Source: Pyrobaculum calidifontis JCM 11548 (GTDB lineage: Archaea; Thermoproteota; Thermoprotei; Thermoproteales; Thermoproteaceae). From it: 32,000 bases of DNA. Of the stretch, positions 7,595-26,980 are shown one piece after another (the first letter of the stretch is position 1; each line of letters starts with the position of its first letter). A model generated the notes under the pieces. The model saw only the letters and a list, made by a program, of their open reading frames with translations. It was not told where the DNA came from and ran no database searches. The stretch covers positions 1,770,001 through 1,802,000 of the forward strand of contig NC_009073.1 of the NCBI RefSeq assembly GCF_000015805.1. Reading direction: 5' to 3'. The position numbers and the translations under genes are program-made.

Positions 7595-7645
7595 ATGTAC
7601 AAGGACTGGGCGGCTCTAAAGCGTTACAAGCGAGAAAGGGAAAGA

Positions 7646-7665
7646 GGAAAAATCGGGGTTTTTCC
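7646..7665 (-). terminator. inverted repeat GGAAAAA-N6-TTTTTCC; either a nor 3' hairpin followed by a U-rich tract or a narG upstream operator
   Basis: 7-bp perfect arms (7646-7652 and 7659-7665). The repeat lies 15-34 nt downstream of the nor stop (7680). On the minus strand it is followed by TCTTTCCCTTTCTC. Its centre is about 61 nt upstream of the narG ATG. Confidence 0.35.
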
Positions 7666-7679
7666 GACGAATCCCCTTT

Positions 7680-9851
7680 TTAACCCCTAAGCGCCTTGGG
7701 CAACCCCTTCACTATGTAGATTAGGAAGACGGCTATGCCCGCGGCGGCCACTATGTCGCCAATCATCCTCAGCCACACAAATGTTTGCACGTCTGGGCGC
7801 ATCCAGAAGGCGGGGGTCCCGTCTGGGGCAAAAATGGCCTTAGAGGCCCAGTAGCCCCACTGCGTCGTCGTTGTAAACTGGGCCGTTGCGAGCAACATGA
7901 GCGACAAGAGCACCTGTATGTAGAAGCCGACTGCCATGACCACCACAGCCACCCTAAGCCTCTTCAACTGTGCCGCGGAGAAGGCACCGGCGAGGGTAAA
8001 GGCCACTACCCACATAAGCATGGACGGAACGCCGTAGGCCAGCGGCATGGCCAAGTGGGCGTGGACCATGGTGGCCTGGCTGCCGTGGAGGTAGTAGTTT
8101 ATTACCGGCATATTTATGAGGCCTGCTCCAAACGCCACAACGCCGACGGCTCCGCCAAACGCCGCGACTAAGACAAAGGTCAGCAGAGTCTTCTGCAACT
8201 CTGTCTTGTACTCGCCCCTCCTCCACAGCACCAGGGCATAGGCAATGAGGAAGCCTATGGGCAAGACCTCTAAAGTGGACATGACGGCGCCTACGTACAT
8301 CCAGAGAGTGGGCTGGCCGCCCCAGTAGTAGTGGTGCGCCGTGCCTATCATGCCCGTGGCTATTTCAAGCGTCGCATCTAGCCCAGCCGCCGCCACGGCC
8401 ATCTTTGGTGGAACCATGCCCGCTATCACTAAGAGGATGAGGAGTATGGGTATCACTATGGCGGGCCAGAAGCCCTCCACGAAGGAGTGTATCAAGATCC
8501 AGCGGAAGTACTCGTCGATTGTGAAGTGAGGCCACGGCGCCACCACCGGCAGCGCCCCCACAACGGCGCCGAACGCGGTGCCGCCGAGCGCAATCGCCAG
8601 TATCTTCACCAGCGGCTGTATGGGCTCCGGCGAAGTCTTCGAAGCCCTCCACACAGCGGCCGATAGGTAGAAGAGGAGGGCCGCAATTAGGAGGAGCCAG
8701 AAGGTGCCTTGGTTAACCACGGGCCGCCCCTGTGAGCCAAAGATAAACCACCACGGGTCCGGGATTAGCTGGAGGTAAGACGCCCAGACCCCGAGCAGCA
8801 CGCCCAGAGCCGCGAAGGCCCCGGCGCCCAATATGGCCAAGGCCCTGGCCTTGGACAATTGCACGCCGAGGTAGGGCAAGACAAACAGCGCGAAGGACAC
8901 CCAAGTCACCACGATCCAGAGAATGGCCAAGTTGTAGTGCAGAGCCCTAGCCACGTTGAACGGCAACACGGAGTTAATTCCAGCAATCCCGTAGAGAGAG
9001 GTGGGCTCTGTGTACTTGTGCATTAGGTAGCCGCCCAGTAGTCCCTGTATTGAGAGCCCCAACACGGCGAGTGCCATGCCGAGGAGGGCCACCCTCTGCG
9101 CGGGGCCCGGAGGCGGGAGGTCGAGGGCGATGCGCGGCTCTCTCCAGTAGTCCAAGAACTTTATAATTATGTAACCCGCCAGCGGCATTATGGCCAGCAA
9201 CAACACGAAGAAAGTGACCCAGGTGGAGGTCGTCACGTGGATATTCGGCGACAAGATGCCAGGCATGTAGGGGAACCCATTGGTGTAGTTAGCCATGGCC
9301 ACCAACACGCCCCAGGTAAAGAAAGCAGCAATCTTCCTGACCTCATCTCTGTTGGTTATGAGGTTGGGCCTCAGCCCCACCTCCTCCGCCCTTGGCCCAA
9401 AGTACTGGGCGTAGAACTCTACCACGTCGTTGAAGGCCTTGCCGAACTCGTCGCTTACCACAAAGGTCCCAGAGGGCGACGAGGCGAAGGCGTACGGCGG
9501 CGCCTCCACCCTAGGCGTCATGAGGCGCCTCACGTCCTCGAAGGCGGCCCCCCTCAAGTTGGCAATCTTGTCCGCATATATCTTCATGGTGTAGGCCACA
9601 TAGTCAATGCCGAAGTAGCCCCCGAAGCCCAAGAAAGAGCCGTAGTCCAGTAGGCCGTACTTCTGAGCCAGCCTCTTGCCCTCAATCACGTCGTTGCCCG
9701 TGAAAAGCACAGCCCCGCTCTTAGTCACCACCTTGTCCGGGATTGGAGGCATGTTGTAGAAAGTCCACACGGCCATGGCCAAATACACCACGTACACCAG
9801 CACCGTCACTCCCAACACCAGGAGAGACCACCCGTTTCTCATGGCCCACAC
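7680..9851 (-). CDS. norB: quinol-dependent nitric oxide reductase (single-subunit qNOR, heme-copper oxidase superfamily)
   Basis: 723 aa and very hydrophobic. Heme-copper/NorB-type motif GTAHHYYWGG. The N-terminal TM plus extracytoplasmic extension is typical of qNOR. The track start at 9851 is GTG; the ATG at 9842 (MRNGWSLL...) fits the promoter spacing better. Confidence 0.9.
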   Translation of the reverse strand: MWAMRNGWSLLVLGVTVLVYVVYLAMAVWTFYNMPPIPDKVVTKSGAVLFTGNDVIEGKRLAQKYGLLDYGSFLGFGGYFGIDYVAYTMKIYADKIANLRGAAFEDVRRLMTPRVEAPPYAFASSPSGTFVVSDEFGKAFNDVVEFYAQYFGPRAEEVGLRPNLITNRDEVRKIAAFFTWGVLVAMANYTNGFPYMPGILSPNIHVTTSTWVTFFVLLLAIMPLAGYIIIKFLDYWREPRIALDLPPPGPAQRVALLGMALAVLGLSIQGLLGGYLMHKYTEPTSLYGIAGINSVLPFNVARALHYNLAILWIVVTWVSFALFVLPYLGVQLSKARALAILGAGAFAALGVLLGVWASYLQLIPDPWWFIFGSQGRPVVNQGTFWLLLIAALLFYLSAAVWRASKTSPEPIQPLVKILAIALGGTAFGAVVGALPVVAPWPHFTIDEYFRWILIHSFVEGFWPAIVIPILLILLVIAGMVPPKMAVAAAGLDATLEIATGMIGTAHHYYWGGQPTLWMYVGAVMSTLEVLPIGFLIAYALVLWRRGEYKTELQKTLLTFVLVAAFGGAVGVVAFGAGLINMPVINYYLHGSQATMVHAHLAMPLAYGVPSMLMWVVAFTLAGAFSAAQLKRLRVAVVVMAVGFYIQVLLSLMLLATAQFTTTTQWGYWASKAIFAPDGTPAFWMRPDVQTFVWLRMIGDIVAAAGIAVFLIYIVKGLPKALRG

Positions 9852-9876: not shown

Positions 9877-9893
9877 GGTTACACCCCTTAACC
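9877..9893. promoter_or_regulatory. candidate operator GGTTAC-ACCCC-TTAACC between divergent nor and narJ
   Basis: 11 of 12 match to GGTTAA-N5-TTAACC. The dyad centre at 9885 is 43 nt from the nor ATG (9842) and 39 nt from the narJ GTG (9924). It is flanked by T-rich CGCTTTTCTC (9863-9872, minus strand) and TATTTAAAAA (9899-9908, plus strand) TATA-like elements. Confidence 0.65.
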
Positions 9894-17262: not shown

Positions 17263-17709
17263 TTAAACTTCGCCGCCCCGTAGCTCCCAGCCGCGTCTCA
17301 GCGCCCTCTTCGCCAACTCCACGAGGTACTCCGCGGCGTGGACAGGAGTGAGGAAGTTTCTCCCAACCACTTTAACCAAGGCGCTTAGGTGCGTGGAGTA
17401 GTAGGGACAGCGCAGGCAGTCGTTGTCGCAGTCGTCGGGCACATAGGCGCAGTTCCCCTCTCCAACTACCACGAGAGGCCTGGCCAAGACCCTTATGTGC
17501 CCATCCACGGCCTCTATGGGTATGTAGACCCCCGGCCCGTCGAAGCCCAGCCCCCTCAGCCTATTTATCCTCCTGTACACGGCGCTTAGAGAAAGGCCTG
17601 TCACAAAGCTTATCTGCTTAGCCCCAAGACCCTTGGCGAGTAGACACAACACGGTGACATCCTCCTTCTCCAGTGAAAAAGAGGTCCGGGGGAGAAATTT
17701 AAATCTCAT
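17263..17709 (-). CDS. HTH transcription regulator with C-terminal four-cysteine cluster (CX6CX3CX2C)
   Basis: N-terminal LuxR/sigma-70 region-4-like HTH (EKEDVTVLCLLAKGLGAKQISFVTGLSLSAVYRRINRL). C-terminal CAYVPDDCDNDCLRCP. The track start (TTG 17730) is unlikely. ATG 17709 (MRFKF...) lies 22-29 nt downstream of TATATAAC (17731-17738, minus strand). Confidence 0.65.
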   Translation of the reverse strand: MRFKFLPRTSFSLEKEDVTVLCLLAKGLGAKQISFVTGLSLSAVYRRINRLRGLGFDGPGVYIPIEAVDGHIRVLARPLVVVGEGNCAYVPDDCDNDCLRCPYYSTHLSALVKVVGRNFLTPVHAAEYLVELAKRALRRGWELRGGEV

Positions 17710-17740
17710 ACTAAGTAGTAAAAAATTCAAGTTATATACG

Positions 17741-18343: not shown

Positions 18344-18376
18344 GTCTCCCCATACGCGGGTGTTAAAGAGGGTTGT

Positions 18377-18393
18377 GGTTAAACACATTAACC
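18377..18393. promoter_or_regulatory. candidate operator GGTTAA-ACACA-TTAACC between divergent cytochrome c and nirS-like genes
   Basis: Perfect 6-5-6 palindrome; the arms extend to 7 bp (18376-18394). The centre at 18385 is 42 nt from the cytochrome c ATG (18343) and 43 nt from the nirS-like ATG (18428). TATA-like GAATAAATC lies at 18399-18407. Confidence 0.7.
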
Positions 18394-18427
18394 ATAATGA
18401 ATAAATCGGACGGGCGTAGTCACTGCC

Positions 18428-20053
18428 ATGTCGCAGTCCCAGGAGAAGGGTGCTGGGAGACGCGACGTGTTAAAGGCCTTTGCCGCCGCTGGCCTGGGCT
18501 TCGCTGTTGGTAGCTGGGCCCTTGCCTTGAGCCGCGGCGCGCCTGTGCAGAAGGTGGTGTACGAGAAGGCTGAGGAGGTGAGGGTGAAGCCCGTGGTTCA
18601 AGTACAGCAACAAACCGCGGCGCCGCAGGTGTCCGCGCCTCCCCACGACGCTTTTCAGAAGAGGGGGCTCGCCTACTTGAGCGCCGATTATATACAAAGC
18701 ACTCTGAGGGTGTTGGTGCCGGAGGACCAGCTCCCCAGCAAGCCCACCGCCTACAACATCAACGACTTGGACTGGATAGCCATACTGATTGAGAGCAGAT
18801 ACCACGAGCCGGGCGTGGAGATGGTGGGGGCCTACACCTTCCTCGATATGAAGAATTTTAAGGTGCTGAAGCGGGTGAAAAACGCGGGGGATAGAGTCCA
18901 CGTGGTGAGGTTCGGCCGCGAGGAGTGGCCTGAGCACAAGAGGAGGTTTGCCCTCGGGATGTCAAGGGACTGCTGGCTCTCCAAGATCGACCTCTACTCC
19001 ATGCAGGTGGTTAGGCAGATTAAAATCGGCGTTGACTGCAGAAGCGCGGCGTACGACAAGGACGGGAAGTACGTAATAGCTGGCTCCAAGGACCCGGGCC
19101 ACGTGGTAATCCTTGACGCGGAGACCTTCAAGGTGTTGAAGGTTATCCCATTCCTTGGCGTGAGCAAGTTCTTCCCCACGCCCATGATGGGCCGGCAGGG
19201 CGCCATATTGACAACCGACTTGGGCTACTGGCTAGTCAACGTAAAAGACGCCGAGATGGTGCTTGTGATAGACTACAGAGACCCCTCCTTCCCCATTGTA
19301 CACGTCTTCACGAGCTATGACACTAACAAGAAGGGGAGAAGCGTCAAAGTCCAAATCGGCGACAAGACCTACGAGACCACAGGCATTGGCAAAAGCCCCC
19401 ACGAGCTCAACAAGTTGGACAAAGTGGGGAGGTATGTGGCTGTCACAGGGCAGGAGAGTAGCACAATTACAATACTCGACGTAGAGAACTTCGAGGTTGT
19501 CAACGTTATCCCATGTGGAAAGAAGCCTCACCCAGGCCCCGGCACCCTAGTCCCCAACAAGTACTTCCTAACCAACGCCATAGCCGAGGGCAAAATCACA
19601 GTGATAAACCTACAAACGATGGACCTAGAGAAGTACATAACTTACCCGCAGGAGTTCCCCGCCGACACAGGCGGCGGCCTCTACTCCACGCCGCCGCTCC
19701 CTGATGGCACAATACCCAAGGGCTTGGCGTGGTTTGACACCACGTTTAATATAAACAAGGGCATATTCGCCGTAGATATATACATGCTTGACGTGGCGAC
19801 GCGGCCGCCGAAGCCCGCGATATTTGCCGCAAACAAGCCGGGCAAGTGGGCCATGCACCCCGGCTATACCCCAGACGGGAAGTATGTAATAAGCGCGCTG
19901 GAGCGCACCGACACGGTGTACAAGGTAGACGCCGAGACTGGGGAAATTGTCGGCACCATAAACCTGAAAAACGTAGAGCCAGTCCAGCTACTAGAGGAGC
20001 CAAGCCCAACGGGCATATTCCCAGCTTGGCGCATAAAGGCGCCCTGGTTCTAA
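18428..20053 (+). CDS. nirS: NirS-family heme-d1 beta-propeller protein (nitrite reductase d1 domain) with Tat signal and no heme-c domain
   Basis: 541 aa. Twin-arginine signal (GAGRRDVLKAFAAAGLGFAVG). Segments RVHVVR, IKIGVDCRS, KYVIAG, HVVILDAETF, VNVKDAEMVLVIDY and KKPHPGPG parallel the d1 domain of cd1 nitrite reductases as I remember them. There is no CXXCH anywhere in the ORF. Confidence 0.75.
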   Translation: MSQSQEKGAGRRDVLKAFAAAGLGFAVGSWALALSRGAPVQKVVYEKAEEVRVKPVVQVQQQTAAPQVSAPPHDAFQKRGLAYLSADYIQSTLRVLVPEDQLPSKPTAYNINDLDWIAILIESRYHEPGVEMVGAYTFLDMKNFKVLKRVKNAGDRVHVVRFGREEWPEHKRRFALGMSRDCWLSKIDLYSMQVVRQIKIGVDCRSAAYDKDGKYVIAGSKDPGHVVILDAETFKVLKVIPFLGVSKFFPTPMMGRQGAILTTDLGYWLVNVKDAEMVLVIDYRDPSFPIVHVFTSYDTNKKGRSVKVQIGDKTYETTGIGKSPHELNKLDKVGRYVAVTGQESSTITILDVENFEVVNVIPCGKKPHPGPGTLVPNKYFLTNAIAEGKITVINLQTMDLEKYITYPQEFPADTGGGLYSTPPLPDGTIPKGLAWFDTTFNINKGIFAVDIYMLDVATRPPKPAIFAANKPGKWAMHPGYTPDGKYVISALERTDTVYKVDAETGEIVGTINLKNVEPVQLLEEPSPTGIFPAWRIKAPWF

Positions 20054-20068
20054 AAGGCTTTACTTTTT

Positions 20069-20524
20069 CTAAATAAGAAGGGCCGCCTTTTCAAGCGCCT
20101 TTTTGAAGACCTTGTACACGGCCACCTTTGTCACCCCCAGCTCTTTGGCCACCTCTCCCAAGCCCCTCCCCTCTGCCACTCGGCGCAGGACAGCTCTCTG
20201 CCTCTCTGTGAGAACCAGCCTCCTGTGAGACACTGCCTCCACTTTGACGACATGTGGGTTGGCTTTCAGGAGCTTTTTCACAGCCGGTGTGGCGCCTACC
20301 ACTACGACGAGTCGCCTGTTTTCCAATTCTACGCTTTTTACATACCCCACGGAGAGGAGTTTGTAGAGTATACACTCTTCACATTTAGACACTATGTGGA
20401 CGACTCCTCTAGGCGTTGCCACAACGTGGACGAGCTTGCCGTTTTGTATCTGAAAGCCCAGGTGGGCGTAGGCGTCGGCCGGCGTCTGTGGGCACGGCTT
20501 TAAAACTACGCGAAGAAATTTCAC
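20069..20524 (-). CDS. small transcription regulator, N-terminal Cys/His domain plus C-terminal HTH (paralog R1)
   Basis: 151 aa with a GTG start. KPCP(9-12), AHLGF(20-24), VHVV(32-35), KCEEC(47-51). C-terminal LTERQRAVLRRVAEGRGLGEVAKELGVTKVAVYKVFKKALEKA resembles HTH_10/LuxR/sigma-70 region-4 type. Collinear with ORFs 21516..21974 and 24274..24705. Confidence 0.7.
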   Translation of the reverse strand: MKFLRVVLKPCPQTPADAYAHLGFQIQNGKLVHVVATPRGVVHIVSKCEECILYKLLSVGYVKSVELENRRLVVVVGATPAVKKLLKANPHVVKVEAVSHRRLVLTERQRAVLRRVAEGRGLGEVAKELGVTKVAVYKVFKKALEKAALLI

Positions 20525-20624
20525 AGTAAATAAGTGGTATCAATATTTAACTTTTTCTATGTTCTATATTTTTATTCCCTAATAGACTAATAAATAGAAG
20601 TATGGAAAAAATTGCACAATTGTC

Positions 20625-20649
20625 TTCTGGTTAACTAAATTAACCAGAA
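20625..20649. promoter_or_regulatory. candidate operator TTCTGGTTAA-CTAAA-TTAACCAGAA upstream of the heme O synthase gene
   Basis: Perfect 10-bp arms with core GGTTAA-N5-TTAACC at 20629-20645. The centre at 20637 is 43 nt upstream of the in-frame GTG at 20680. TATA-like GCTTTTAGG lies at 20651-20659. Confidence 0.7.
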
Positions 20650-20679
20650 TGCTTTTAGGCGTTGCTTCGTGTAAGTGTC

Positions 20680-21519
20680 GTGGTGAAGGCGTATCTGACT
20701 TTGTTAAAGCCGAGGGTCATTTGGCTTTTAATTTTGGCCAGCGCAGCTGGGTACGTATACGCCGCGGGGGGCGTGGATTGGGGCAAGCTGTCTTCTCTTC
20801 TCTTGGCGGCTCTCTTGGCCACGGGCGGCTCTGCCGCGTTTAACCACTACTGGGAGCGTGACATAGACGCGGCAATGCGGCGCACGTCTCGTAGGCCTCT
20901 TCCAATGGGCCTAATTAAGCCGGGCAGGGCTTTGGCCTTTTCTCTGGCGCTCTCCGCGGCCGGCGTTGCCCTGGGCTTCCTCCTGCTGGGCCCGTTGCCG
21001 GGGGCCTTCGTGGCCTTGGGCTGGTTCTTCTACGCCGTGGTGTACACCATGTGGCTTAAGAGGAGGAGCTGGCTAAACGTCTTGGCAGGGGGATTCGCCG
21101 GGAACGCGGTTTTTCTAGGCGGATATGCGCTGGGAAAGGGCCACATAGACCTCGCCGCAGTGTTAATGTCCTTTGCCGTGTATCTCTGGATCCCGGCGCA
21201 CATATGGTCTCTGGCCTACAAGTACAAAGAGGACTACAGAAGGGCTGGCGTCCCCATGCTTCCTGTCGTAATTGGCGAGCAGAAGGCTGTCGTCGTGATA
21301 TCTGTCTTGAACGTGGCAAGTGTCGCCTATATAGCACTTTTGACGTTGCTCTTTTTGCCCTCCCTCTTGTCCTTGTTGCTAGTCGCCGTGGGCGCGGGGG
21401 CGGCCGTTGCGTCGAGTATATACGCGCTGGTGAAGAGGACTGAGGGAGCCATGTGGAAGATGTATAAATCCTCGGCCCCCGTCTTGACGATATTCTTGGT
21501 CGCAGTAATGCTGGCCTAG
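20680..21519 (+). CDS. ctaB: protoheme IX farnesyltransferase (heme O synthase, UbiA family)
   Basis: Motif [21 protein letters not shown] is typical of CtaB/CyoE; the protein is polytopic. The track start is TTG 20662. GTG 20680 or 20683 ([13 protein letters not shown]...) fits the TATA and box spacing better. Confidence 0.88.
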
Positions 21520-21974
21520 ACTAGGAGGGCCACCTTTTTCAAAGCTCTCCTAATTAGCTTAAGCGCCGCCACTCTGCTTACGCCCAGCTCTTTGGCCAAG
21601 TCGCCGGCCCCCTTGCCCATTGCCAAGTGGAGGAGCGCGTCTCGCTGTTTTTCAGTGAGCACTAGGTTCTTGTAGGACACCTCCTCTACCTTTACCACTT
21701 GGGGCGAGTTTCTCAAGACCCTTTTAACAGCGCCGTTGCCAGTCACCACGATAGTGATACGCCCCTCGCCCAGCTTGACTCCGCCGAAGATGTACCCGCT
21801 TGACGCCAGTTGGTAGAAGACACACTCGTCGCATTTGGCTACTACCCTCTCCACGCCCCGAGGGGTGGCCACAAGGTGTATTACATGCCCATTGCGCATG
21901 TGAAAGCCTAGATGGGCATAGGCGTCGCGGGGGACCTTTGGGCATGTACGTAAAACAACTCTAAGAAACTGCAT
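21516..21974 (-). CDS. small transcription regulator, N-terminal Cys/His domain plus C-terminal HTH (paralog R2)
   Basis: 152 aa. [68 protein letters not shown]. Clearly homologous to R1 along its full length. 4-nt convergent overlap with ctaB. Confidence 0.7.
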
Positions 21975-22091: not shown

Positions 22092-23060
22092 TTACTGCGG
22101 CGGGTTGAGGGGGACTGGCTTCGACTTGGCTGACCGAAGCGCCGCGTAACCCGCGATCCCCACTACTAACACGGCGGCTGGCGCCGTTAGGCCGACGTTT
22201 CGAAGGGCGTATGCGGCCAGCGACGCGGCTAGTAGCTCGTACTTGTAGCTTGGCGCTTCTCTGTAGAGGATTGAGGGGAGGAAGTAGGGCACGCAGAGGG
22301 TGGACATTATGACGGCGAAGGCCATGTAGGCGAAGTGGTGCCCCAGAGGGGCCAGGGCTATGGCTACTCTAAAGAAGAGGGACCCCACGCCGTATGCGTC
22401 GCGGGGCTTGGGAGGAGCCGTTAGGGTTAGGGCAATGGAGGGGAATATGAAGGACCACAGATGCCCCCACAGTGACGCGGCCCAGGCTAGGGCGTAGAGG
22501 AGGGCCAGGGTAGCCGCCGCCTTCAGCCTAAAACGCGCCTTTGCCCTAGAGACGTCTACGCGGTAGAGAAGAGTGTAGACGGAGGCCAGTGGGAAAGATA
22601 GCGCCGCCATTAGGGGGGTGGGGGAGAGCGGGAGAAGGGCGAGGCCTGGTATGGTGATTAAGTTGGGGTAAAAGGTGGGCTTTTTTCCAAGCCCCTTGGC
22701 GTATAGGGCGATGTACACGGCGGAGAAGGGGGCGTAGGCGGCGTAGCCGTAGAGCTGGGAGGCGGCTGTGCCAAGGATGAAGAGGGCTGTGAGTAGCCAC
22801 GTGGCCCACCTAGCCGGCGCCGCGTTGATGAAGCCTGGTAGCTGGATGTACATTACGGCGAAGTAGAACGCCAGCAGGCCCGACACCATGAGGGACATAT
22901 GCCACGCCACCTGCCCCACGGCGGCGAGGAGGGCGCCCCCGGCCAAGAAAAAGGCCGAAAGAAAGAGGGCGAGCCTGGAGGCCCACACCACGTCTACCAC
23001 GGCCTTGTAAAAAGCCAAGGGCTCAGACCTCCCCACTGGCAACCAAGGCGAGAGGCCCAT
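22092..23060 (-). CDS. polytopic membrane protein, divergent NnrS-like candidate
   Basis: 322 aa, hydrophobic throughout. The segment WHMSLMVSGLLAFYFAVMYIQLPGF loosely parallels the NnrS H-x-x-x-M-x-x-G-F region. Starts 9 nt after the upstream NnrS-like gene. Confidence 0.4.
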   Translation of the reverse strand: MGLSPWLPVGRSEPLAFYKAVVDVVWASRLALFLSAFFLAGGALLAAVGQVAWHMSLMVSGLLAFYFAVMYIQLPGFINAAPARWATWLLTALFILGTAASQLYGYAAYAPFSAVYIALYAKGLGKKPTFYPNLITIPGLALLPLSPTPLMAALSFPLASVYTLLYRVDVSRAKARFRLKAAATLALLYALAWAASLWGHLWSFIFPSIALTLTAPPKPRDAYGVGSLFFRVAIALAPLGHHFAYMAFAVIMSTLCVPYFLPSILYREAPSYKYELLAASLAAYALRNVGLTAPAAVLVVGIAGYAALRSAKSKPVPLNPPQ

Positions 23061-24273: not shown

Positions 24274-24705
24274 TCACTCTCCCAGTAGAGCCAGTAATTT
24301 TCTCACAGCTCTCTTCACAAGCTTACTTGTAGCCGCCTTAGAAACTCCCAGCTTCTCAGCCGCGCCTTTGATAGAGCGTGAAGAAAACACACGCAAAGCC
24401 TCCACTTCCCTTTCGGTCAAGTTAAATCTGTAAGGGGCGTAACAAGGCCCATAAGCCGACTGCCCCCTCACCACTATGGCAAATATAAAATATCCATCCA
24501 CGGTAAGAATAGATTTGATATAAGACTTAGATACAAGCTTCGCGATGGAGCAGTCCTTCCTGCATACAACTTTTCTGAGCCTCCCGTTCCAAACTAGGTG
24601 AGCCAAGTCGCCGTTCTCCACTCTGAATCCAACATGTTTAAACTCATCCCCAGATTGTGCCAAAAAATGAGGGCATGGCTTATGTCTAATTATACAGATA
24701 TACAT
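24274..24705 (-). CDS. small transcription regulator, N-terminal Cys/His domain plus C-terminal HTH (paralog R3, most divergent)
   Basis: 143 aa. HKPCP, KHVGF, AHLV, CRKDC (CX3C), then LTEREVEALRVFSSRSIKGAAEKLGVSKAATSKLVKRAVRKL. Same order and spacing of features as R1 and R2. TATA-like TTTTTATAAG (24721-24730, minus strand). Confidence 0.65.
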   Translation of the reverse strand: MYICIIRHKPCPHFLAQSGDEFKHVGFRVENGDLAHLVWNGRLRKVVCRKDCSIAKLVSKSYIKSILTVDGYFIFAIVVRGQSAYGPCYAPYRFNLTEREVEALRVFSSRSIKGAAEKLGVSKAATSKLVKRAVRKLLALLGE

Positions 24706-24782: not shown

Positions 24783-24799
24783 GGTTAACGAGGTTAACC
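24783..24799. promoter_or_regulatory. candidate operator GGTTAA-CGAGG-TTAACC upstream of nosZ
   Basis: Perfect 6-5-6 palindrome, which also reads as the tandem repeat GAGGTTAAC x2. The centre at 24791 is 42 nt upstream of the nosZ ATG (24833). The A/T-rich AAAAGACTTAT at 24800-24810 is the presumptive TATA. Confidence 0.7.
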
Positions 24800-24832: not shown

Positions 24833-26980
24833 ATGCGAACGCCTACAAAGGTGAGGTTTGCCTCGTCGTCTCCCGGCGCCGGGGGCGGCGGGGCTAAGGA
24901 GGCGACTAAAATAAAGATTTCTAGGCGCGACGTGGTTATAGGCCTAGGGGGACTGGCCGTGGGGCTGGTGGGGGGCCTCGCCTTAAGCCAGCTCTTGGCC
25001 AAGGGGGCTGTGGCGCCGGCGCCCCCCGGCGTGTCGGCACGGGTCCAAGAATTGGCCGCGGCAAGAGGGCTGTCGCCTCAAGACGTAGAAAATGCCGTGG
25101 CCACGTATCTCCCCGGAGGGAAGTACGACGAGTTCTACATGTTCTCAAGCGGCGGCCACTCGGGGCAGGTGGCGGTCTACGGCCTTCCCTCTTTGAAGCT
25201 CTACCGCATAATAGCCGTATTCACTCCCGAGCCTTGGCAGGGCTGGGGCTACCACGATAGGAAGACCATGGAAGTTCTCTTCAGCGAGAGAGCCACCGCT
25301 GGCAGGCCGCTCAGCTGGGGCGACACCCACCACCCCGAGTTCGATAGGCAAAACGCCGAATATGTCGGCAGATGGCTGTTCATTGGCGACAAAGTGAACG
25401 GGAGAGCAGCCGCCATTTCCCTACTAGACTTTGAGACCAAGGACATTGTAAAAATCCCCAATGTACAAACTATCCACGGCGGCGCCTTCACTACTCCAAA
25501 CACGGAGTACGTCTTATACGCCACGCAGTATCCAGCGCCTTGGGAGCCGGGCAGAGGATATAAGCCAGGTGTCACCAAGGTCCCGTGGAGCCAAGTGGTA
25601 AAAGATGAAAAGTACTTCTGGGAGTACATGAGGGGTGCCCTCACGTTCCTCGCCTTTGACCGTAACACTGGGAGATTCGACTTGTCGAAAAGCTTCCAAA
25701 TAGAGGTCCCGCCCTATGTGCAAGACCTTTCCACAATATCCTGGGGCCCCGGCGACGGTTTGGCGTTTGTCAACTCCTTTGGCACAGAGGGCATGTTCGG
25801 AGAGACGCCATATGAGGCAAAGTTGTCTAAGAACGACTACGACCTGTTACACATAGTGCTGTGGAGAAAGGCTGAGGACCTCTGCTTGAGGCAAGGCCGT
25901 TGCAAGGAGATAAACGGCATAAAAGTCCTCTCCCTAGAGGACGCGATTAAGGAGGGGGTGTTGTTCTTTGTTAGAGAGCCCAAGAGTCCCCACGGCGTAG
26001 ATACATCCCCCGGCGGGCACTTTATATCTGTGGGAGGCAAACTGGCCCCCTACGCCACAGTCTACAGCACGGAGAAGATAAAGCAGGCCATTGCAGATAA
26101 GAAGTTCGAGGGGCAGGACAGATACGGAGTGCCTATATTGGACTACGGTAGCGTGGTTGCGGGACAGGTGGAGGTCTGCCTAGGCCCACTACACACAGAA
26201 TTCGACGGGAGAGGCAACGCCTACATCAGTTGCTTCGTGGAAAATGTAGTAACAAAATTCACCCTAGGCTCGCCCGAGTACAGAGGCGATAAGCCGTTCA
26301 CAGTGGTAGACAAAGTGCAGATACACTACAACGTGGGCCACATATGTGTGCCAGAGTCTAATTCGCCTAATCCAGCTGGGAAGTATCTAGTGGCGTTGAA
26401 CAAGTGGTCAATAGACAGATTCTTCCCAGTGGGGCCGCTTAAGCCTCAGAACTTCCAGCTAATAGATATATCTGGTGATAAGATGAGGCTACTCGCAGAG
26501 GTGCCCGTGGGCTGGGGCGAGCCGCACTACGCCAAGGCTATACGGGCTGAGAAGATAAAGCCGCTTGACGTATATCCAGTGGGCACGGACCCCCACGTCA
26601 TGAAAGATGGCCAGTTCCAGTTGAGCTCCAATGCGGTGACTGAAATAGGCAAGGAGCGGGTGCAGAGGTATCAGCTACCAGACGGGAGGTGGGTCACTGA
26701 GGTTTGGGGCACGGTGATTAGGTCGACTATAAGGCCTAACATTATTGTGGCAAAGAAGGGCGACATAGTGCGCCTCCACTTAACCAACATAGAGAAGAGC
26801 GTAGATGCCACACATGGCCTTGCCATTGCTGAGTACAATGTGGCGGCCTCGCTGGAGCCCGGCGAATATGCCGAGATAGAGTTTGTGGCAGATATACCCG
26901 GCGTATTTGCCTTCTACTGCTACGAGTTCTGCTCACCGCTCCACTTAGAAATGGTGGGATGGCTGGTAGTAGAGGAGTAA
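24833..26980 (+). CDS. nosZ: nitrous oxide reductase with Tat signal
   Basis: 715 aa. Twin-arginine motif ISRRDVVIGLGGLAVGLVGG. CuZ-region motifs GDTHHPEF, LFIGDKVNGRAA and PNVQTIHG. C-terminal CuA motif HG...CYEFCSPLHLEM (C-x3-C-x3-H-x2-M). Confidence 0.95.
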   Translation: MRTPTKVRFASSSPGAGGGGAKEATKIKISRRDVVIGLGGLAVGLVGGLALSQLLAKGAVAPAPPGVSARVQELAAARGLSPQDVENAVATYLPGGKYDEFYMFSSGGHSGQVAVYGLPSLKLYRIIAVFTPEPWQGWGYHDRKTMEVLFSERATAGRPLSWGDTHHPEFDRQNAEYVGRWLFIGDKVNGRAAAISLLDFETKDIVKIPNVQTIHGGAFTTPNTEYVLYATQYPAPWEPGRGYKPGVTKVPWSQVVKDEKYFWEYMRGALTFLAFDRNTGRFDLSKSFQIEVPPYVQDLSTISWGPGDGLAFVNSFGTEGMFGETPYEAKLSKNDYDLLHIVLWRKAEDLCLRQGRCKEINGIKVLSLEDAIKEGVLFFVREPKSPHGVDTSPGGHFISVGGKLAPYATVYSTEKIKQAIADKKFEGQDRYGVPILDYGSVVAGQVEVCLGPLHTEFDGRGNAYISCFVENVVTKFTLGSPEYRGDKPFTVVDKVQIHYNVGHICVPESNSPNPAGKYLVALNKWSIDRFFPVGPLKPQNFQLIDISGDKMRLLAEVPVGWGEPHYAKAIRAEKIKPLDVYPVGTDPHVMKDGQFQLSSNAVTEIGKERVQRYQLPDGRWVTEVWGTVIRSTIRPNIIVAKKGDIVRLHLTNIEKSVDATHGLAIAEYNVAASLEPGEYAEIEFVADIPGVFAFYCYEFCSPLHLEMVGWLVVEE

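Follow-up and report, generated by a model that had tools for sequence, protein, structure and literature searches.

Results

The denitrification island and its heme O synthase gene

The window analyzed here, a 32,000-nt stretch of the Pyrobaculum calidifontis JCM 11548 genome (one contig of 2,009,313 bp with 57% G+C), is a denitrification island. Read in order, its genes are narG, narH, an EB_dh-type subunit, the quinol nitric oxide reductase (qNOR), narJ and a Rieske/cytochrome b complex; these are followed by a cytochrome c assembly protein, a hemerythrin and a membrane cytochrome c gene that is divergent from nirS (18428-20053). Next come HTH10_a, ctaB, HTH10_b, two polytopic membrane proteins and HTH10_c, and then nosZ (24833-26980), nosL, nosD, nosF, nosY and an MFS transporter (Table 1). 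An earlier note on this DNA had called the ORF between nirS and the nos genes a CtaB/CyoE-type heme O synthase, and both the identity and the position are confirmed. Its product, here ctaB_den, matches TIGR01473 with 238.7 bits (cut-off 210.3) over residues 3-278 of 279 and the UbiA model PF01040 at 1.8e-54, and it has both Asp-rich prenyl-diphosphate motifs typical of UbiA superfamily proteins, NHYWERDID (residue 54) and DYRRAGVPM (residue 184). Judged by family membership, ctaB_den is a full heme O synthase.

Table 1. Features of the window that bear on the ctaB promoter (positions are those of the window; a dot marks features given without a strand).
Feature	Position	Strand	Remarks
qNOR (quinol nitric oxide reductase)	7680..9842	-	proposed heme O consumer
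Box 5' of qNOR	9877..9893	.	1 mismatch
Box common to the divergent nirS and membrane cytochrome c promoters	18373..18397	.	
HTH10_a, 151 aa	20069..20524	-	divergent from ctaB; Cys C11, C48, C51; C-terminal HTH
ctaB box	20625..20649	.	core GGTTAA-N5-TTAACC at 20629-20645, 0 mismatches; same sequence in close relative
TATA-like element GCTTTTAGG	20651..20659	+	-29 to -21 relative to GTG 20680; weak
Non-coding spacer, TATA-like element to start	20660..20679	+	includes false start TTG 20662
ctaB_den, heme O synthase, 279 aa	20680..21519	+	GTG 20680; TIGR01473, PF01040
HTH10_b	21516..21974	-	convergent with ctaB; 53% identical to HTH10_a
orf22092, 322-aa polytopic membrane protein	22092..23060	-	Pyrobaculum-only
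HTH10_c	24274..24705	-	third, more distant paralog; divergent from nosZ
Box 5' of nosZ	24783..24799	.	exact core

A rare core shared by the boxes of the island

The palindrome reported upstream of ctaB is present exactly as it had been described: it reads TTCTGGTTAA-CTAAA-TTAACCAGAA, with perfect 10-bp arms around a 5-bp spacer and its centre at 20637. On its own such a palindrome is unremarkable, as perfect 10-bp-arm palindromes with spacers of 3-8 nt occur 23 times genome-wide and 17 times in shuffled sequence. The excess over chance is in the core that the boxes have in common. The exact GGTTAA-N5-TTAACC occurs only three times in 2,009,313 bp, versus ~0.06 expected from the half-site counts, and it is this core that counts. 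The three copies start at window positions 18377, 20629 and 24783 (5' of nirS, ctaB and nosZ), all inside 6.4 kb, and at up to two mismatches the window holds five matches to the core versus 0.78 expected.

We derived a position weight matrix (PWM) from 24 box sites and scored the sites leave-one-out. An intact promoter-proximal TTAACC is present in 23/24 sites, in contrast to a degenerate distal half, and there is little information outside the 6-7 bp core. None of the other copies matches the ctaB box in the length of its perfect arms (10 bp; runner-up 7), but by its leave-one-out score of 31.5 bits the ctaB box ranks only sixth of the 24; the earlier claim that it is the strongest copy is therefore true of its symmetry and not of its match to the motif. 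We also considered that the palindrome might be a terminator or an RNA element and rejected both, since neither strand has a gene end close by and Rfam has no match in 20000-21000.

A full-text literature search found no description of this box in Pyrobaculum, with the proviso that the 2009 work of Cozen et al. may already have the regulator or motif. Outside the window, the only other good box-like site of the genome lies at genome positions 959599-959615 (AGTTAATGAGGTTAACC, 1 mismatch). Exactly 43 nt from its centre is the ATG of a 190-aa membrane ORF without a Pfam match, which is followed by a 454-aa ORF; this is a possible further member of the regulon.

Geometry of the box promoters

The boxes are found at a nearly fixed distance from the start codons that they precede. 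The centre lies 43 nt upstream of the nirS ATG 18428 and 42 nt upstream of the cytochrome c ATG 18343, 42 nt upstream of the nosZ ATG 24833, 43 nt upstream of qNOR if its start is ATG 9842, and 43 nt upstream of the ctaB GTG 20680. Across 13 genomes, namely this one, seven others of Pyrobaculum and five of the sister genus, the centre-to-start distance is 41-46 nt (mode 43) at nirS, cytochrome c, qNOR, nosZ, narG and one further gene, a rule followed by five promoters of the present genome and by 23 of the relatives in the two genera. Every box promoter has a short T-rich TATA-like element between the box and the start, at ~-30 to -21, which fits leaderless transcripts. The ctaB promoter satisfies this geometry, with its distance of 43 nt, GCTTTTAGG at -29 to -21 and an intact proximal TTAACC. 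The alignment of distances and core bears out the proposal that the ctaB box shares its sequence and geometry with those of nirS, qNOR and nosZ, and the spacing to GTG 20680 and the placement of the TATA-like element are both as the note had them. On these sequence features we regard the ctaB box as real and as a genuine representative of a conserved class of promoters.

Two observations concern the neighboring respiratory genes. The start of qNOR is likely ATG 9842 and not GTG 9851, as the former has the standard 43-nt distance and the relatives begin M-K-N-G-W there. Further, narG follows qNOR after 85 nt (window 7595-7679) and has no box of its own, whereas the relative G014 has an exact box 41 nt 5' of narG; nar control may hence differ between species.

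Start codon and core promoter of ctaB

The annotated start of ctaB, TTG 20662, is too far upstream, as had been suspected from the spacing. We rejected it because it would put the box centre at a distance of only 25 nt and the start codon immediately behind the TATA-like element, and because a close relative has CGG in its place. The latter is known from a metagenome contig of 150.9 kb on which the gene order is unchanged (HTH10_a 93% and orf22092 95% identical). Its intergenic region as a whole is 97% identical. Of the 18 nt across 20662-20679, however, five differ in this relative, including the change from TTG to CGG, while the box and GCTTTTAGG are unchanged, and for this reason we take 20662-20679 to be non-coding. 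The oxidase-linked paralog described below begins MVKPYL at the equivalent of GTG 20680, the ctaB of the close relative is called as 279 aa, which amounts to a start at 20680, and the other Pyrobaculum orthologs begin one codon later, at the equivalent of 20683. By these comparisons the start of ctaB is GTG 20680, with GTG 20683 possible, and the annotation is to be moved.

The TATA-like element of ctaB is weak: its best 8-mer has 6/8 A/T, and the box promoters average 6.8. The 17 ctaB orthologs and paralog of the genus without a box average 7.8, with 8/8 in 15/17.

A second heme O synthase among the oxidase genes

The earlier note had proposed a search for another ctaB next to oxidase genes, and there is one. 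At genome positions 1810855-1811688, 20 kb away, a second ctaB that is 62% identical to ctaB_den lies between two heme-copper oxidase operons, one of COX2/COX1 (560-aa) with SCO1 and cytochrome c, the other of COX2 and a fused COX1-COX3, with PCuAC nearby. Its promoter has a strong TATA box and no palindrome. The two copies score equally against TIGR01473, and in the paralog the first Asp-rich motif is near-identical and the second identical to that of ctaB_den.

In a protein tree, the island ctaB groups within the clade of the genus, with the oxidase-linked copy placed just outside (support 90/90 and 94/87; both branches are long). The island copy keeps orf22092 as a neighbor and, in two relatives, also an HTH10 neighbor; because of these conserved neighbors it appears to be the syntenic ortholog of the ctaB that other species have in single copy. 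As a side observation, no COX15/CtaA heme A synthase (PF02628) is found in the genome at E≤0.01, though the fused COX1-COX3 oxidase is there; the same model also misses the Sulfolobus acidocaldarius control, and a divergent archaeal enzyme may escape it.

ctaB and the denitrification genes in relatives

The box is not conserved upstream of ctaB orthologs, an outcome that the earlier note had listed among those that would speak against its reading. None of 26 relatives has a box of its own 5' of ctaB (within 200 bp, at up to three mismatches); the ctaB box is kept only in the 93-95% identical close relative, where its conservation weighs little, the region being 97% identical overall. Nevertheless, in three relatives ctaB follows immediately on a nirS or cytochrome c gene driven by a box: in G002 and G006 the order is box, nirS and, after ~33 nt, ctaB, and in G001 it is box, cytochrome c and, after ~96 nt, ctaB. 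In G003 the order is ctaB, box, qNOR, and G016 has the gene order of the window with a ctaB that lacks the box and has a strong TATA box in place. G001 (2,222,430 bp) also has two copies, the first being the one behind the cytochrome c gene next to nirS and the second adjoining an aa3-type oxidase. As these are 97% identical, versus the 62% of the old split in the present genome, the duplication in G001 would be recent or the copies would have been held alike by gene conversion.

The linkage of ctaB with nirS has, at the same time, to be read with the oxidase genes in view. In G002, G006 and G016 only a few kb separate ctaB from the oxidase cluster, which is on the opposite side from nirS, and in the single-copy species ctaB is at the junction of the oxidase and nirS clusters. 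The ctaB-nirS linkage in these species is therefore ambiguous as a sign of a role in denitrification. Outside Pyrobaculum, ctaB is within 10 kb of qNOR in none of 22 loci.

Candidate regulators of the box

The three HTH10 paralogs share conserved cysteines at ~11, 48 and 51 and a C-terminal HTH, and score 25.8 (HTH10_b), 21.3 (HTH10_a) and 21.2 bits (HTH10_c) against the Pfam HTH_10 model (cut-off 23.1). No CRP/FNR domain was detected in the island ORFs scanned. A word-based homolog search with HTH10_a returned a single near-identical protein.

Among 29 genomes of the family, 12 have both HTH10 and qNOR, two qNOR alone, three HTH10 alone and 11 neither, with one more having a weak HTH10 match only (4.9e-7), counts that come from related genomes and not from independent samples. 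In the sister genus, HTH10 and qNOR are oriented divergently and the box stands in the gap, at 43-44 nt from the ATG of qNOR. The same divergent pair is seen outside Thermoproteales, in five Aeropyrum, Acidilobaceae, Desulfurococcales and Pyrodictiaceae MAG loci (L079, L082-L085): all have GGTTAA/TTAACC half-sites between HTH10 and qNOR, arranged as an N5 box (at most one mismatch) in three and N6-spaced in two, with the box 75-100 nt from the qNOR ATG. It is this joint inheritance of HTH10, box and qNOR across several Thermoprotei orders that makes the HTH10 proteins the candidate binders, and HTH10_a and HTH10_b, perhaps also HTH10_c, probably recognize the box. A fourth small regulator-like protein is encoded at window 17263-17730 on the minus strand, with an N-terminal HTH and a C-terminal cysteine cluster (C-x7-C-x3-C-x2-C); it is kept beside the HTH10 genes in several Pyrobaculum genomes and was not seen beside qNOR outside the genus.

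The membrane protein neighbors

The most conserved neighbor of ctaB is orf22092, which accompanies it in 12/18 ctaB loci of the other 16 genomes of the genus. The AlphaFold model of orf22092 is of high stated confidence (pLDDT 93, pTM 0.91), and a fold search with it gave no significant PDB match; the only sizeable TM-score is to NorB of cNOR, 4xyd_A (TM 0.57, query-normalized; probability 0.85; E=1.3). His54 and His242 are invariant. Two identities were considered and rejected: NnrS for the neighboring membrane proteins, as PF05940 has no match in the genome even at E≤1, and heme A synthase for orf22092, given the lack of any COX15 match in the genome and of a significant PDB match.

Discussion

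A proposed mechanism for the ctaB promoter

Based on the above observations, we propose that the box is the transcription factor site of a denitrification/NO regulon, that it drives a leaderless ctaB mRNA via HTH10 activators, and that the heme O so made most plausibly goes to qNOR, a reading to which we give a probability of about 0.65. Briefly, the small Cys-rich HTH10 proteins would bind the box directly upstream of the weak TATA-like element, with the promoter-proximal TTAACC at ~-40 to -35, and would activate transcription when oxygen is absent or NO is present, the mRNA starting at or next to GTG 20680. Two features favor a role in activation, namely the weakness of the core promoters and the location of the box 5' of the TATA-like element. 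By this means ctaB_den would be wired to the same switch as nirS, qNOR and nosZ, whereas the copy in the oxidase cluster has a constitutive-looking promoter. Hence, ctaB_den would supply a prenylated heme at the time of synthesis of the denitrification enzymes, of which qNOR is the most plausible recipient.

The last step draws on another species of the genus. The P. aerophilum qNOR, which is 80% identical to the qNOR of the island, is reported to carry the O-type hemes Op1/Op2, in work of de Vries and colleagues in 2003 that is confined to P. aerophilum; Lubben and Morand reportedly dealt with hemes Op1/Op2 in 1994. If so, denitrification would have a biochemical reason to need a heme O synthase. 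Our literature search did not find the heme O content of qNOR restated. To our knowledge, the work on the P. aerophilum enzyme did not address which ctaB gene or promoter supplies the heme; that species has two ctaB copies, 97% identical, both of them without a box of their own. That heme O would be supplied to qNOR is plausible.

Alternatives to the proposed mechanism

In one alternative the box is functional, but the heme O would be destined for an O2-scavenging heme-copper oxidase or another membrane hemoprotein (e.g., orf22092/orf23070) expressed during denitrification and not for qNOR, a possibility that gains something from orf22092, whose pairing with ctaB persists in genomes that have neither qNOR nor the HTH10 regulator, and from one relative in which a ba3-type oxidase operon adjoins the nosZ box. 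Yet no other gene is found with the box as consistently as qNOR when genera and orders are compared, and with the O-type hemes reported for the P. aerophilum enzyme we consider these other destinations rather unlikely, if still worth keeping in mind.

The box could also be the operator of a repressor, with HTH10 blocking TFB/TBP at the BRE/TATA under oxic conditions and being released on reaction with NO or on reduction of a Cys-bound cofactor. Fe-S regulators of the NsrR type work by such occlusion, and the proximal half-site (-40 to -35) abuts the expected position of the BRE. However, the box is wholly upstream of the TATA-like element, as is typical of archaeal activator sites, and the TATA elements of the box promoters are weaker than those of the box-free ctaB promoters, as expected of promoters that need help. 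We accordingly view repression as an unlikely mode of action.

More improbable still is that the box serves mainly in the autoregulation of HTH10_a, with ctaB affected incidentally. It does lie in a 155-nt intergenic region common to the two genes, and divergent regulator-target pairs with a box recur in other Thermoprotei, but its centre is 113 nt from the HTH10_a start as against 41-46 nt at every other box, and HTH10_a has its own A/T-rich element nearer its start. Finally, that the palindrome is a chance feature or a functionless remnant, as the near-chance rate of such palindromes genome-wide and the lack of conservation at the four additional arm positions might suggest, we dismiss as barely credible, the exact 12-base core being found at only two other genome sites, both in the same island and at the same start-codon distance.

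Returning to activation by HTH10 proteins as the preferred reading, one may ask how the two ctaB genes came to differ in their promoters. A doubtful scenario, which we offer tentatively, is that after a second ctaB was gained the strong TATA box of the syntenic ancestral copy was lost and this copy passed to the control of the NO/denitrification regulator, leaving the extra copy to serve the oxidases. If this split is true, heme O supply would be regulated on its own in archaeal denitrification and might limit it, and the two enzymes might make different prenylated hemes (e.g., Op1 versus Op2/As precursors) for qNOR and the oxidases.

Comparison with known systems

The arrangement recalls the bacterial FNR/DNR/NnrR boxes (TTGAT-N4-ATCAA), in which a palindrome likewise stands at a fixed distance (~-41.5; here -43) before nir, nor and nos, coupled to an O2- or NO-sensing regulator, and in which cofactor-supply genes are sometimes included. 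It differs in having a 6-5-6 GGTTAA/TTAACC site, archaeal TATA/BRE promoters and leaderless mRNAs, and in that the candidate regulator is a Cys-rich protein of 150 aa with a C-terminal HTH_10/LuxR-like HTH, not a CRP/FNR protein. An archaeal precedent is NarO of Haloferax volcanii, reportedly shown by Hattori and colleagues in 2016 to regulate denitrification, with conserved N-terminal cysteines and a C-terminal HTH_10-type domain. The HTH10 proteins resemble it in having N-terminal cysteines and a C-terminal HTH and in the location of the gene among denitrification genes, but they are much smaller and from a different phylum, and only one of the three paralogs is above the HTH_10 cut-off. Nor was sequence similarity detected: a tblastn search of HTH10_a against plasmids gave no haloarchaeal match at E≤1.

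For the provision of a modified heme to a nitric oxide reductase, the closest parallel is eNOR, which has the prenylated heme As in both heme sites and many of whose operons carry ctaA (Murali et al. 2024, PMC11214002). Both cases would pair a NOR having a prenylated heme with a heme-modifying gene in the NOR cluster. The gene of eNOR, though, is an O2-dependent heme A synthase of aerobic denitrifiers, while here it is a heme O synthase and the enzyme would be qNOR; and the coupling is by operon there, by a common promoter box here. Heme O, which is made without O2, would be a reasonable anaerobic equivalent of the heme As of eNOR. We see the proposed control of ctaB_den as a sensible extension of known biology and not as a new kind of system.

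Implications

In conclusion, the gene arrangement and promoter class suggest that ctaB_den probably provides anaerobic respiration with modified heme as the need arises. Should the promoter act in the way proposed, it would be genetic evidence that archaeal denitrification needs heme O; such a need would fit the report of O-type hemes in a Pyrobaculum qNOR and would parallel the heme As of eNOR. That the genome has two paralogs, only one of which has the box, offers a clean experimental handle. The wider value goes beyond ctaB and lies in the box together with the Cys-rich HTH regulator, which accompany qNOR across several Thermoprotei orders. An NO-responsive regulator was reportedly predicted in P. 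aerophilum by Cozen and colleagues in 2009. The box and HTH10, for which we have so far found no experimental characterization, would be the crenarchaeal counterpart of the bacterial DNR/NnrR systems.
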